Both the position numbers and the translations under genes were made by a program. A stretch of DNA of 10,212 bases, from the IMG/VR virus record IMGVR_UViG_2606217104_000013; one strand, 5' to 3'. Position 1 is the first letter of the stretch. The number at the start of each line of letters is the position of its first letter. The notes under the pieces are model-generated. The model searched no databases. It had not been told where the DNA came from and worked only from the letters and a program-made list of their open reading frames with translations. Of this stretch, positions 6,036-8,450 are shown piece after piece. This DNA is from a virus. Its lineage: Duplodnaviria; Heunggongvirae; Uroviricota; Caudoviricetes.

Positions 6036-6128
6036 AAAATCGCAGGTGCATTTCTGCATCTGTGACGGGAGAAGATAGTTTAGATTGTATGTGCGCATAA
6101 ACGTCCCCGTTTAGCGCAGAAGTCACCG
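6036..6128. repeat. Direct repeat copy 1 (~93 bp) with internal imperfect palindrome TGCGCATAAACG-TCCC-CGTTTAGCGCA
   Basis: 93 bp matching 8358-8450 at a constant offset of 2322 bp with 5 mismatches; palindrome at 6092-6118; followed by an 11-bp-stem hairpin at 6121-6151 (agtcaccggag / ctccggtgact). Confidence 0.85.
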
Positions 6129-6221
6129 GAGGAGTTCAAACTCCGGTGACTTAATTATGACAAGTTGATTATTGAAAATCAAAAGTCATTTAAACAATAA
6201 TGATACCCAGCAAGAGATTTC

Positions 6222-6623
6222 TTATTTTAACTCATAGATCAGACAGTCAACGATTTCTAAACCATTTACCATAGAATTAGAAACGCGAACTTTACCATCG
6301 TTGACTCTAGCAAATCCTTTTAACATTTTATAAACAAAAGCTGAATCCCCCTTAGCCTCAATTGCTTCTAATGGTATCGGCTTATACTTTTTTGATATGC
6401 TATTTCTATTTATCTCACTGATTTTTCTATATATTTCTGCCGGCCCACGTTCTGAGAAGTCACTGATAACTAAAATATATCTCCAAGATAGATCTGGGTA
6501 ATAAAACCACATTGCAGCATCAATAGTTAAATTCTGTAACTTGAGTTTTTTTAACAAAAATTGACCTGAGAATTCCATATCTTTTGTCAACTCTCTGCCG
6601 ATTACCAGTGTGCTTTTACCCAT
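6222..6623 (-). CDS. Hypothetical 133 aa protein, second gene of the AT-rich two-gene operon (possible partner/antitoxin-like component)
   Basis: ATG at 6623 with GGAG 8 nt upstream; start lies 22 nt inside the 3' end of the upstream gene; roughly 35% GC against about 50-55% in flanking phage genes; no family recognised. Confidence 0.6.
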   Translation of the reverse strand: MGKSTLVIGRELTKDMEFSGQFLLKKLKLQNLTIDAAMWFYYPDLSWRYILVISDFSERGPAEIYRKISEINRNSISKKYKPIPLEAIEAKGDSAFVYKMLKGFARVNDGKVRVSNSMVNGLEIVDCLIYELK

Positions 6624-7018
6624 TTCAAAACTCCAGAATTTTGGTCACCTACAGCATCAAACAATTGTTCGGCCATAGCTTTACTTATGTTATTGTCGTA
6701 TCTAAATTGCTCGCTCCAGTCTTTAACGACCGACCAGTTAATCTCCAACGAAACATCATTTTTTGCGTCAGCAATCAAAATTTGATGTAAGTTGGCAATT
6801 TTGAGAAGTTGCGACAAATCATGAGTATATGAATCATTTACGACTTTTTTGTTTGGAAACTCATGTTGTAAAAATGACTTGGCAATACAGGCCTTCAATG
6901 CACATTCAACTGCATACCCACAAAGATAATATGCACCATGAAAAAAGCCATGATCAAGCAAGCATTTGGCCTCATTAAGCCTAGTGTCAGATAATGCTTC
7001 AAGGTCGTTTTTATTCAT
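6602..7018 (-). CDS. HEPN-like domain protein (138 aa), first gene of the AT-rich two-gene operon
   Basis: ATG at 7018; helical protein with HEPN-like signatures: YAVECALKACIA (cf. QAxEKxLKAxL), THDLSQL, and a C-terminal FRYD motif. The canonical Rx4-6H arginine is replaced (VNDSYTHD), so the assignment is tentative. Confidence 0.55.
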   Translation of the reverse strand: MNKNDLEALSDTRLNEAKCLLDHGFFHGAYYLCGYAVECALKACIAKSFLQHEFPNKKVVNDSYTHDLSQLLKIANLHQILIADAKNDVSLEINWSVVKDWSEQFRYDNNISKAMAEQLFDAVGDQNSGVLKWVKAHW

Positions 7019-7021
7019 ACA

Positions 7022-7081
7022 ATTATAACTTGAATTATCCTAATTTTTATGATTATACCCTTATCAGGTATGATGTAGGAA
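7022..7081 (-). promoter_or_regulatory. Candidate sigma70 promoter(s) for the AT-rich operon
   Basis: Minus strand reads TTCCTA-18 nt-TATAAT (plus 7081-7076 and 7057-7052). A second TATAAT (plus 7027-7022) ends 3 nt before the ATG, so the mRNA may be leaderless or short-leadered; no SD precedes the ATG. Confidence 0.3.
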
Positions 7082-7317
7082 CTGAAAACAATATTGGATA
7101 TCATTTTCGGTATTTCTCTGCAAATTCCAGCCCACAGGATCTCGGTGTACAATCTGTCGCTGATCGCGCAAATTTAGGGTCAATCACTTCATTTTTTGCA
7201 TCAAACCCTCACTAACATCGAACGATTATAGTACAAGTAGTGTTCTTGACTTCTCATTAAACCGTCAGCATTCAATTAATTACAAAATACTAGCGGCATT
7301 TCTCTCCCGCAACTTTA

Positions 7318-7926
7318 TTACAGCCGTTCAGAACGTAAATGCGTCAATACTCGACTCCACTTATCATCCTGCCACGGCCGGAATTTTACATGTGCCGTTT
7401 CTCTGGCAAGGATTGCCTGTGCCTTATTGAGTATCCGGGGATATTCTTGTTCGATTGAAGTGAAGCGACCGGCTTCGCGGTGTTCTGCTACCTGAAGAAG
7501 CGGAGTGACGTTTTGGCAAGCGGTTAACATTGTGTCACTTGCCCGCCATAACCAAGCAAGTGTGCAAAGTTCGTTATCAGTGAATTGTTTTGTGATTGGG
7601 GATTGTTGAATTTCTCGATCGAGAATATCCAGCACCCAGCGGCGGAATTCTTTGGCCACAGGAGTGCGGGCGAACATGGCGATCAGATGGGCGCCACGGA
7701 GGGAGAAAATGCGAGTCTTCTTACGATAATTTCCTGAGGTCGTTGATTCGACGACCTGAGACATTCCGTCAGTAAACTCATCAATATTTTTGTTGTAGAT
7801 GTCGGTTACTGCTTTGGTGCTGGCATATTTTAATGCTGCCGCCAATTCTTTGCTGGTAAACCAGATCTGGTTGTTGTGATTTATAGGAGTGAATTTTACA
7901 TCGCGGAATGCGAGCTGAGTGACCAT
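7318..7926 (-). CDS. Bro-N domain protein (Roi / antirepressor-like)
   Basis: Bro-N-like N-terminal domain (LAFRDVKFTPINHNNQIWFTSKELAAALKY ... RIFSLRGAHLIAMFARTPVAKEFRRWVLDIL). Start is uncertain: ATG 7926 (202 aa) is preferred; in-frame ATG 8061 (247 aa) is possible. The ORF-track start at 8163 lies upstream of an intrinsic terminator and is unlikely. Confidence 0.5.
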   Translation of the reverse strand: MVTQLAFRDVKFTPINHNNQIWFTSKELAAALKYASTKAVTDIYNKNIDEFTDGMSQVVESTTSGNYRKKTRIFSLRGAHLIAMFARTPVAKEFRRWVLDILDREIQQSPITKQFTDNELCTLAWLWRASDTMLTACQNVTPLLQVAEHREAGRFTSIEQEYPRILNKAQAILARETAHVKFRPWQDDKWSRVLTHLRSERL

Positions 7927-8088
7927 AGCGATAATCTCGTTTTGAATTTGAGCTATCACCACCGACGACGCCAATCGACTGGTGGTGGACTGTGCAAGGT
8001 TGGCGTAACCGGTCAAAACGAAATCCGGCGCTTCCGAAGAAGCCCTCACACAGCCCACCATAATTTTTGTGTAGACGTGCACTGCGCA

Positions 8089-8110
8089 TAAAAAAACCGC
8101 GAACGCGGTT
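8089..8110 (-). terminator. Rho-independent terminator on the minus strand (tR2-like, or attenuator terminator)
   Basis: Minus-strand RNA: AACCGC-GUUC-GCGGUU followed by UUUUUUU (plus strand 8089-8096 is an A-run). Confidence 0.6.
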
Positions 8111-8196
8111 ATGCGTCGTTTTGATGTCCGGGACGCCAATCCCGTGTGCCGATTTTGCGGCAACGCACAGAATATAGCGCCGGATAAATAATGTCG

Positions 8197-8241
8197 TCAA
8201 CCCTTGCATATGGGGGGCGCGATGATCACTACTACCACCAT
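8197..8241 (-). CDS. Leader-peptide-like mini-ORF (14 aa, MVVVVIIAPPICKG)
   Basis: ATG at 8241 with GGAG 5 nt upstream; six consecutive Val/Ile codons; followed by about 85 nt with several possible stem-loops and then the 8089-8110 terminator. Confidence 0.3.
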   Translation of the reverse strand: MVVVVIIAPPICKG

Positions 8242-8357
8242 AATCGCTCCAACTGTTGCAACTACTTTAGGCTAAGACATCACGATTTCCATATCACCTT
8301 TAGCCGCCAGACAAACAGAGACTCCCTGTTCTTGGCTGCCAAAAACACCGAATGCAA

Positions 8358-8450
8358 AAAATCGCAGGTGTATTTCTGCATCTGTGGAGGGAGAAGAGAG
8401 TTTGGATTGTATGTGCGCATAAACGTCCCCGTTTAGCGCAGAAGTCACCG
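8358..8450. repeat. Direct repeat copy 2 (~93 bp), same palindrome-containing element as 6036-6128
   Basis: Aligns to copy 1 with 5 mismatches; palindrome at 8414-8440. Confidence 0.85.

Follow-up and report, generated by a model that had tools for sequence, protein, structure and literature searches.

A conserved nin-operon leader as the probable seam at which lambdoid prophages exchange and stack accessory genes

Why does a lambdoid prophage carry the same short sequence twice, in the same orientation, around a set of accessory genes? The question is raised by IMG/VR virus record IMGVR_UViG_2606217104_000013 (Duplodnaviria; Heunggongvirae; Uroviricota; Caudoviricetes), from which we analysed one stretch of 10,212 nucleotides (nt), referred to here as the window. 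The window covers part of a lambdoid prophage of the DLP12/phage-82 type, whose early-right genes lie on the minus strand. An initial annotation had described direct repeats of about 93 bp with five mismatches, and had read them as a module-boundary or linker sequence through which the enclosed cassette was recombined in. Judged by annotated counterparts in other phages, the repeat combines the leader of the nin-like operon with the 5′ 78 nt of a small gene, ylcH. In our view it is likely that the two repeats are copies of this leader with ylcH, and that the leader supplies the shared homology at which crossovers between lambdoid phages swap and stack their cargo.

A direct count of 6036-6128 against 8358-8450 confirmed 5 mismatches in 93 positions (94.6% identity), in direct orientation and with an offset of 2322; the mismatches lie at positions 6049, 6065, 6066, 6076, and 6082 of copy 1. 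Recognisable homology extends further, as a repeat search of the window paired 6021-6182 with 8343-8504 (162 nt, 81%), and blastn of copy 1 against copy 2 gave a match of 123 nt (87.8%, E = 8e-40). Since every other repeat pair in the window is 29 nt or shorter, the 93-bp pair is far above chance. An assembly artefact was ruled out, because 5400-8700 is 100% identical in E. coli E2865 (NZ_AP018808.1) and this 3.3 kb stretch, which spans both copies, is covered to at least 80% in 176 complete E. coli genomes. The matches listed with the two-copy arrangement include O26, O103, and O157 strains. O26:H11 strain 11368 is a further carrier of the prophage. We rejected a CRISPR or other array, as the initial annotation had done, because there are two copies only and no further family members in the window. 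A tRNA or att site was also rejected, since ARAGORN returned no match. The two copies and the block of identity between them are as follows.

5997..6185, minus strand: copy 1, the complete nin-operon leader with intact ylcH/orf33 (coding sequence (CDS) of the Prokaryotic Genome Annotation Pipeline (PGAP) in the identical E2865 record; annotation of phage 82, X92588)
8343..8504, minus strand: copy 2, an allele of the leader whose promoter and first hairpin are degenerate, followed by the first 78 nt of ylcH (repeat search, direct count)
6083-6128, with its partner at 8405-8450, minus strand: a 46-nt identical block, the longest identity between the copies and the putative crossover interval

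Copy 1 carries a whole small gene, known as ylcH in K-12 and as orf33 in the phage 82 record X92588. It occupies 5997-6098 and encodes 33 amino acids (aa); in the PGAP annotation its stop codon overlaps the GTG start of ybcN (GTGA), and ylcH is predicted to be translationally coupled to ybcN. Upstream of orf33, X92588 annotates a putative -35 element, a -10 element, an inverted repeat termed a "possible regulator-binding site," and a ribosome-binding site. The phi80 record annotates the same inverted repeat, which corresponds to the arms of the hairpin that we call hairpin 1, as IR4. Alignment of 14 repeat copies supported this identity, and the leader has a match in 2756 of 5426 complete E. 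coli genomes, about half. The term "linker" in the initial annotation therefore needs amending: the repeat does act as a module-boundary element, but the PGAP and phage 82 annotations make it a functional leader with the 5′ part of ylcH rather than a neutral linker. Similarly, copy 1 does lie 35 bp from the ybcN start codon, as had been noted, but it overlaps the annotated small gene at 5997-6098. Hairpin 2, the Shine-Dalgarno sequence, and the opening 16 nt of ylcH all fall within the identical block, as does the larger part of the 3′ arm of hairpin 1.

Copy 2 differs from copy 1 in what follows it. Its ylcH homology stops near 8343, and PGAP treats 8343-8420 as an incomplete hypothetical-protein pseudogene; the ylcH frame runs on into unrelated sequence to give an ORF (open reading frame) of 46 aa (8280-8420). 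This ORF is not kept everywhere, as its start codon is ATA in phage IdasGreatGrand and it has an early stop in one further two-copy locus (L052). Behind copy 2 lies a small ORF with a predicted transmembrane (TM) character, and then an immI-like C4 RNA and antirepressor gene, together called the c4-ant unit.

8197..8292, minus strand: small hydrophobic ORF of 31 aa, MEIVMS*PKVVATVGAIMVVVVIIAPPICKG, between copy 2 and the c4 promoter

The TM ORF has a good Shine-Dalgarno sequence and is broken in the window by an amber codon (8272-8274); each of the seven other copy-2 loci that we read has an unbroken version of 29-31 aa. Within the phage collection it occurs next to copy 2 only, and it has a weak match to PHROG 4612. 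Copy 2 stands directly upstream of the TM ORF and c4-ant unit in every two-copy locus (11 of 80 IMG/VR loci), and copy 2 with the c4 unit is present in 299 of the 5426 complete E. coli genomes. The sequence that follows the end of the ylcH homology is common to all copy 2 loci, and we therefore conclude that the truncation of ylcH arose once and that the unit then spread. The copy 2 leader allele is the sole leader in E. coli NJS001. At least six loci have c4-ant units without copy 2, and there the homology to the window begins at 8202. One apparent further case (L035, IMGVR_UViG_2617270948_000002) was rejected, because an insertion sequence of the IS3 family has replaced its copy 2 leader; in that record an IS3-family transposase ORF lies at 9-761, and the ylcH-tail, the TM ORF, and the c4-ant unit remain.

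The leader lies at the downstream edge of a slot whose content varies between phages. The slot and its borders involve three genes.

9231..9932, minus strand: replication gene P, whose end forms the upstream edge of the variable slot (annotation)
8679..9026, plus strand: orf115 (115 aa; Pfam VCH_CASS14, PF18315, E = 6e-20), accessory cargo upstream of copy 2
5545..6000, minus strand: ybcN (orf151; NinB/Orf family), the first large gene of the nin-like operon (weak NinB Pfam match; PHROG 72 NinB/Orf, E = 7e-52)

In 19 relatives (L002-L020), homology to the window is regained at 6183-6202, where the palindrome described below starts, except in L017, where it is regained at 6158. Upstream of 6183-6202 the cargo differs among relatives, and homology resumes at the end of P (9203-9221). 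We counted at least nine distinct sets of cargo in the interval from P/ren to the leader, all ending at the equivalent of window position ~6185. In K-12 the slot holds emrE-ylcJ-ybcK-ybcL-ybcM; elsewhere it holds a YajG-family lipoprotein gene with a gene for a hypothetical protein, an alpha/beta hydrolase gene, small hypothetical genes, and various antirepressor units. A DUF4041 gene in the slot of phage PhiR26_1 is the annotated defence gene PD-lambda-1. This gene is oppositely oriented and sits immediately upstream of a copy of the leader, at 5817-7319 in the PhiR26_1 locus (L013) and at 3883-5385 in L021. PhiR26_1 is inducible, and the gene is present in this slot in at least 46 complete E. 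coli genomes. The spacing between the P end and the leader was 1.07-5.5 kb in the 80 IMG/VR loci in which P was found, and we found no truly empty slot, with P/ren immediately followed by the leader, in annotated records or in these 80 loci, the shortest spacing being ~1.07 kb. By comparison of loci, the slot is a site of variable cargo in every relative examined. A literature search returned no description of the slot between P/ren and the leader as a hotspot.

In the window, the order along transcription is P, orf115 (on the plus strand), copy 2, the antirepressor gene, a HEPN gene, a 133-aa ORF, copy 1, and ybcN. The initial annotation had described a 2.2 kb accessory segment bracketed by the repeats. 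Accessory genes do lie within, but the segment is composite, and the accessory DNA extends past copy 2 to include orf115. The repeats therefore do not bound the whole accessory region, and copy 2 sits in its middle.

An empty-site configuration, with one repeat copy between ybcN and the P side, had been suggested as a check on the module-boundary reading. We built a synthetic junction by joining window 5545-6098 to 8421-9230, the product expected from recombination between the repeats, and this junction gave one contiguous match, with 100% coverage and 97.9% identity, in two complete E. coli genomes (NJS001 and STEC799). NJS001 has P, the orf115 protein (WP_000152742.1, adjoining its single leader), one leader with the same YlcH protein, and ybcN. 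A three-way alignment shows this single copy to be identical on its upstream side to window copy 2 and on its downstream side to window copy 1, with the switch inside the 46-nt block; the window and NJS001 are 100% identical over 8405-9521. The same relation holds for other cargoes. A junction based on PhiR26_1, with PD-lambda-1 as cargo, has a single-piece match in 46 complete E. coli genomes and again switches in the identical block. For the YajG and hypothetical protein cargo, comparison of the single form (L002) with the double form (L055) placed the switch in the identical block or its equivalent. For a fourth cargo, a second c4-ant unit, the single form (L030) and the double form (L041) switch at the far end of the homology, ~60 nt away; the position of the switch is therefore not fixed. 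Single- and two-leader forms thus exist for four upstream cargoes, three of which switch within the identical block, and these junctions support the module-boundary reading.

L041 (IMGVR_UViG_2917891409_000001) has two tandem c4-antirepressor-cargo-leader units at 945-5971, which are 99% and 92% identical to the single unit of L030. This tandem may be close to the original duplication behind the two-leader arrangement.

Flanking identities distinguish between ways in which the single-copy forms could have arisen. Single and double forms are 99-100% identical over 1.5 kb of upstream flank, while their downstream nin genes are 96-98% identical, within or near the 94-97% of unrelated pairs that we took as background. 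Near-identical upstream flanks combined with background downstream flanks point to crossovers between phages at the leader, the left arm deriving from one parental phage and the right arm from a second, and not to recent deletion. For the same reason, that the downstream flanks are at background identity only, an origin of the single-copy genomes by simple deletion within one molecule is not supported. On mechanistic grounds, the 46-nt block would nonetheless be expected to support intramolecular deletion of the 2.3 kb.

We propose the following route. The leader (~100-190 nt), which is kept in all phages of this type, would be the nearest homology downstream of freely variable cargo, and crossovers between co-resident phages or prophages, of the RecA or Red/RecET type, would fall in it. 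One lineage would have gained a second, truncated leader joined to the small membrane ORF and the c4/isrK-antirepressor unit. A crossover at the upstream leader of such a phage would put the ylcH-tail, the TM ORF, the c4-ant unit, further cargo, and an intact leader behind the cargo of the partner. Cargoes would thereby become stacked, with the truncated leader marking the seam, and a crossover at the downstream leader would yield a single-copy phage. The stack in the window would then read orf115, copy 2, the TM ORF (amber), c4-ant, and HEPN pair, copy 1, and ybcN. We infer the recombination pathway and the direction of each event from these comparisons. The segment contains no recombinase gene and one lineage switches elsewhere, both of which lend indirect support to general recombination over a dedicated enzyme.

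Several points weigh against this proposal. All of the support for recombination is comparative and comes from sequences. Neither of the two genomes that have the "empty" junction is a plain deletion derivative of this prophage, as their ybcN side is only 94-96% identical to the window. The switches of three lineages coincide in one short stretch around hairpin 2 that is at the same time the longest block of identity, and strictly speaking a locally favoured or specific site is conceivable. The proposal does not account for the source of the ylcH-tail and TM ORF or for the origin of the first two-copy phage. Finally, copy 2 may be more than a seam and may persist because it serves to express the small ORF.

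This last point has its own rival explanation, in which the duplication is mainly a re-used expression signal: each leader drives or gates the ORF behind it (ybcN in one case, the small membrane ORF in the other), and selection keeps both. The ylcH-type ORF overlaps the next ORF in both copies, with GTGA at ybcN and the 46-aa ORF ending inside the start of the TM ORF. In addition, the TM ORF is intact with coding-like variation in the seven other copy-2 loci, and some copy-2 leaders (L041, L052, L055, and L095, at 93-97 bits) score like copy-1 leaders in a covariance model of the element. We nevertheless think it rather unlikely as the principal explanation. In the window an amber codon interrupts the TM ORF, and copy 2 has a degenerate promoter, palindrome, and hairpin 1; the copy-2 ORF, as described above, has lost its start in IdasGreatGrand and is stopped early in L052. 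A re-used signal also leaves the chimeric single copies unexplained, and it can stand alongside exchange at the leader without replacing it.

Two further explanations concern how the segment was put in place. It is highly improbable that the repeats reflect a recent local tandem duplication or a transposon target duplication, even though they surround inserted DNA in direct orientation and L041 resembles a tandem whole-unit repeat. The copies differ by 5% in the core and ~19% overall, and the junction at which the homology of copy 2 ends is shared with copy 2 of distant phages and not with copy 1 of the same phage, which contradicts a local origin. A target duplication would be 2-14 bp, compared to the 93-162 bp of this repeat, and the segment has no transposase and no terminal inverted repeats at its ends. 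Least credible of all is a site-specific system, integron attC-like or att-like, in which a recombinase moved a 2.2-kb cassette. The family of the adjoining orf115 was first seen in Vibrio integron cassettes (PF18315), the repeat has an imperfect inverted repeat, and the switch points of three lineages share one short interval; however, that interval is simply the longest identical block and the fourth lineage switches ~60 nt away. There is no integrase or recombinase in or beside the segment, no integrase is annotated in the surrounding 15 kb, and neither copy has a core site of attC (RYYYAAC, GTTRRRY). Moreover, the segment is multi-gene with its own promoter and terminator, and single-copy relatives also exchange cargo at the slot.

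What, then, keeps the leader conserved? We aligned leaders from Escherichia, Enterobacter, Citrobacter, Huaxiibacter, Siccibacter, and Phytobacter prophages together with phi80. Four features are conserved; three are listed next, and the fourth, within ylcH, is described further below.

6154..6182, minus strand: promoter-like site with TTGATT (-35), a spacer of 17 nt, and CATAAT (-10) (promoter scan; putative in phage 82)
6122..6150, minus strand: hairpin 1, GTCACCGGAG, a loop of 9 nt, and CTCCGGTGAC (covariation; IR4 of phi80; remnant in copy 2 at 8444-8472)
6093..6117, minus strand: hairpin 2, with a 10-12 bp stem, the Shine-Dalgarno sequence as its GGGA loop, and the start codon of ylcH (AUG, 6096-6098) within the 3′ arm (covariation)

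The -35 element sits within the palindrome TTGAT-N8-ATCAA (6165-6182), the sole such palindrome in the window. Its arms and the ATAAT are conserved over the six genera, CATAAT being near-invariant, while the palindrome centre varies. The predicted start of transcription is near 6147. The stem of hairpin 1 occurs in compensatory versions (GTCACCGG/CCGGTGAC, TCTGCCAG/CTGGCAGA, GTCACCGC/GCGGTGAC, and GGTTGTC/GACAACC) around a loop, AGCCUGAACAACU, that is conserved across genera. Hairpin 2, whose sequence is the same in copy 2 (8415-8439), has a stem in five different sequence versions with pairing kept in all. Over both hairpins, RNAalifold found changes on both sides in 11 of 17 pairs. The 66-nt stretch of copy 1 that contains both hairpins (6095-6160) folds at -27 kcal/mol (z = -4.6), compared to -12.2 (z = -1.3) for the matching stretch of copy 2. 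Hairpin 1 combines a covarying stem with a conserved loop, the reverse of the pattern expected from a double-stranded operator, and this argues for it acting as a folded single strand. We sought a complement to the hairpin 1 loop elsewhere in the window and found none. Hairpin 1 as a canonical intrinsic terminator was rejected, since it is followed by UUCUGCGC, has no U-tract, and is absent from the terminator scan.

Within ylcH, codons 12-22 are near-invariant at the nucleotide level. At 6041-6058 (minus strand) the gene contains a hairpin that resembles a terminator (TGCAG..CTGCG and then a T-run); it has a counterpart in copy 2 at 8363-8380 and coincides with codons that are almost invariant in nucleotides over the six genera. 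Near-invariance at this hairpin suggests a constraint beyond coding, and the hairpin is possibly an attenuator. The literature searched mentions ylcH in gene lists only.

We searched related loci, 758 kb in total, with the covariance model built from the alignment. Every locus from the six genera that bear the leader has exactly one match upstream of ybcN, and a second copy turned up in two-copy loci only, upstream of the TM-c4-ant unit. The model found nothing at other positions in the 758 kb, in lambda, or in Pantoea and Rosenbergiella loci, and we saw no case of two copies flanking unrelated core genes, the arrangement that would have indicated a duplicated regulatory signal. Rfam 15 had no match to the leader at E <= 1 over the whole window or at E <= 10 over 5960-6230.

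These features may together form a cis-regulatory element that comprises an operator-like palindrome at the promoter, a 5′ hairpin with an invariant 13-nt loop, a GNRA-type loop presenting the Shine-Dalgarno sequence, a buried start codon, and a coupled ORF of 31-33 codons. Tentatively, and with slightly less than an even chance in our estimation, the repeat could be an undescribed cis-regulatory leader RNA of the nin operon in phage-82/phi80-type phages across the Enterobacteriaceae, through which a factor or signal would gate expression of the recombination genes ybcN and rusA and of Q, and whose strict conservation would make the site a preferred seam for stacking defence and antirepressor cargo.

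The cargo between the repeats is of the kind that the initial annotation had listed: an AT-rich gene pair, a Bro-N/P22AR gene, and a leader/terminator element, which Rfam resolves into C4 and isrK.

7978..8200, minus strand: immI-like antirepressor leader (Rfam; promoter and terminator scan), made up of the next four features
8171-8200, minus strand: promoter-like TTGACG-18-TATATT (promoter scan)
8125-8177, minus strand: a1/b1 targets (Rfam c4-a1b1, 40.6 bits, below the gathering threshold of 46.7)
8090-8162, minus strand: isrK-like RNA with terminator (Rfam, 64.1 bits; gathering threshold 50)
7978-8065, minus strand: C4 antisense RNA (Rfam, 82.5 bits; gathering threshold 45)
7318..7926, minus strand: antirepressor gene of 202 aa, with Bro-N and a P22AR C-terminal domain (PF02498, PF10548; PHROG anti-repressor Ant families; PGAP CDS)
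6222..7018, minus strand: AT-rich two-gene unit (33-36% GC), within an AT-rich stretch from about 7283-7333 to 6186
6602-7018, minus strand: HEPN-domain protein of 138 aa (Pfam HEPN, E = 3e-6; weak PADLOC match to PDC-M28A, E = 1.8e-7)
6222-6623, minus strand: partner ORF of 133 aa, overlapping the HEPN gene by 22 nt (no Pfam or PADLOC family match)

The arrangement is of the immI c4-antirepressor type, in that a C4 RNA lies upstream of the Ant gene; the candidate a1/b1 targets score below gathering. P1/P7 immI (c4-icd-ant) and the isrK-anrP region of Salmonella Gifsy-1 resemble the unit behind copy 2 in having C4, isrK, and a Bro-N/P22AR gene. Unlike P1/P7 immI, the window unit has no icd-like ORF that we could identify and its a1/b1 match is below threshold; the likeness concerns the cargo and not the repeat. 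Homology to several relatives starts or stops at ~7638 and ~7713, between the Bro-N and P22AR_C halves of the antirepressor gene. In three relatives (L005, L008, and L020) truncated antirepressor C-terminal fragments adjoin ybcK, and in L089 the N-terminus differs. These breaks between the domains indicate that the domain boundary is another recombination joint.

The two proteins of the AT-rich unit belong to PHROGs 5737 and 5760, both function-unknown families. When the pair was compared with HEPN-MNT systems, one member had a HEPN domain (E = 3e-6) and the 133-aa partner had no Pfam or PADLOC family. The pair is absent from all other two-copy relatives and is present in L089 behind the different antirepressor N-terminus. 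It may be a toxin-antitoxin or defence pair.

Beyond the repeats, orf115 is convergent with P and occupies the usual place of ren, which this prophage lacks. The VCH_CASS14 family is named after Vibrio integron cassettes, and the orf115 region has 35-41% GC. After ybcN come ninE, ybcO, rusA, ylcG, quuD, a porin gene, and the lysis genes. The porin gene, of the OmpC/NmpC type, is intact (2857-3939, plus strand) and lies between quuD and the lysis genes; in the K-12 strain MC4100 (L003) the porin CDS is followed immediately downstream by an IS5 transposase gene. The prophage also carries an iss/bor lipoprotein gene (725-1066, plus strand).

The closest counterparts of the repeat itself are the region upstream of orf33-orf151 in phage 82 (X92588; Mahdi et al., 1996) and IR4 of phi80, where the same element stands directly before orf151/ybcN. 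Those records have one copy only and call the inverted repeat a possible regulator-binding site, whereas the window has two. In lambda, the terminator tR2 occupies the same position, between ren and ninB and immediately before a NinB/Orf-family gene. It differs in having a canonical GC-rich stem followed by TTTTTATTT, compared to TTCTGCGC after hairpin 1, and there is no sequence similarity. We therefore rejected hairpin 1 as a homologue of tR2, as its position matches and its form does not.

As a joint, the leader resembles those of other lambdoid mosaics, being a short conserved sequence between a variable segment and a conserved module with natural crossovers inside. The module theory of Susskind and Botstein is said to describe such modular exchange among lambdoid phages, and boundary sequences reportedly underlie the linker idea of Clark et al. 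for HK620. Unlike such linkers, the sequence here is a functional leader, and its conservation thus has an explanation of its own; it also occurs twice in one genome and stacks two cargo sets. Experiments support such exchange: lambda recombines with defective prophages by homologous recombination, and lambda-Rac recombinants arise at ~2e-6 for a region whose longest identity is 49 bp (De Paepe et al., 2014; PMC3945230). The 46-nt block is in the range of the 49 bp that supports this exchange between lambda and a prophage (PMC3945230).

As a slot, the locus resembles prophage hotspots for defence and accessory genes (P2/P4 hotspots, Rousset et al., 2022, PMC9122126; Vassallo et al., 2022, PMC9519451), in that a fixed position between conserved phage genes has differing cargo. 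One of its cargoes is a validated defence gene, PD-lambda-1/DUF4041 (PhiR26_1, 46 genomes). It differs in being the interval between P/ren and the nin leader of 82-type phages, and in also carrying antirepressor modules, emrE, lipoproteins, and a hydrolase.

The locus is thus a well-resolved instance of known lambdoid mosaicism and an unsurprising kind of event, which confirms the concept of phage mosaicism and does not change it. It offers a sequence-resolved example of lambda-like prophages swapping and piling up accessory genes, including defence genes and antirepressor switches, at one slot, and it explains the position of the boundary, because the homology comes from a leader under functional constraint. 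Existing knowledge has least to say about the leader RNA, which we flag as a conserved structured RNA absent from Rfam. As the slot belongs to a prophage type found in about half of complete E. coli genomes, it could be mined for new defence genes.

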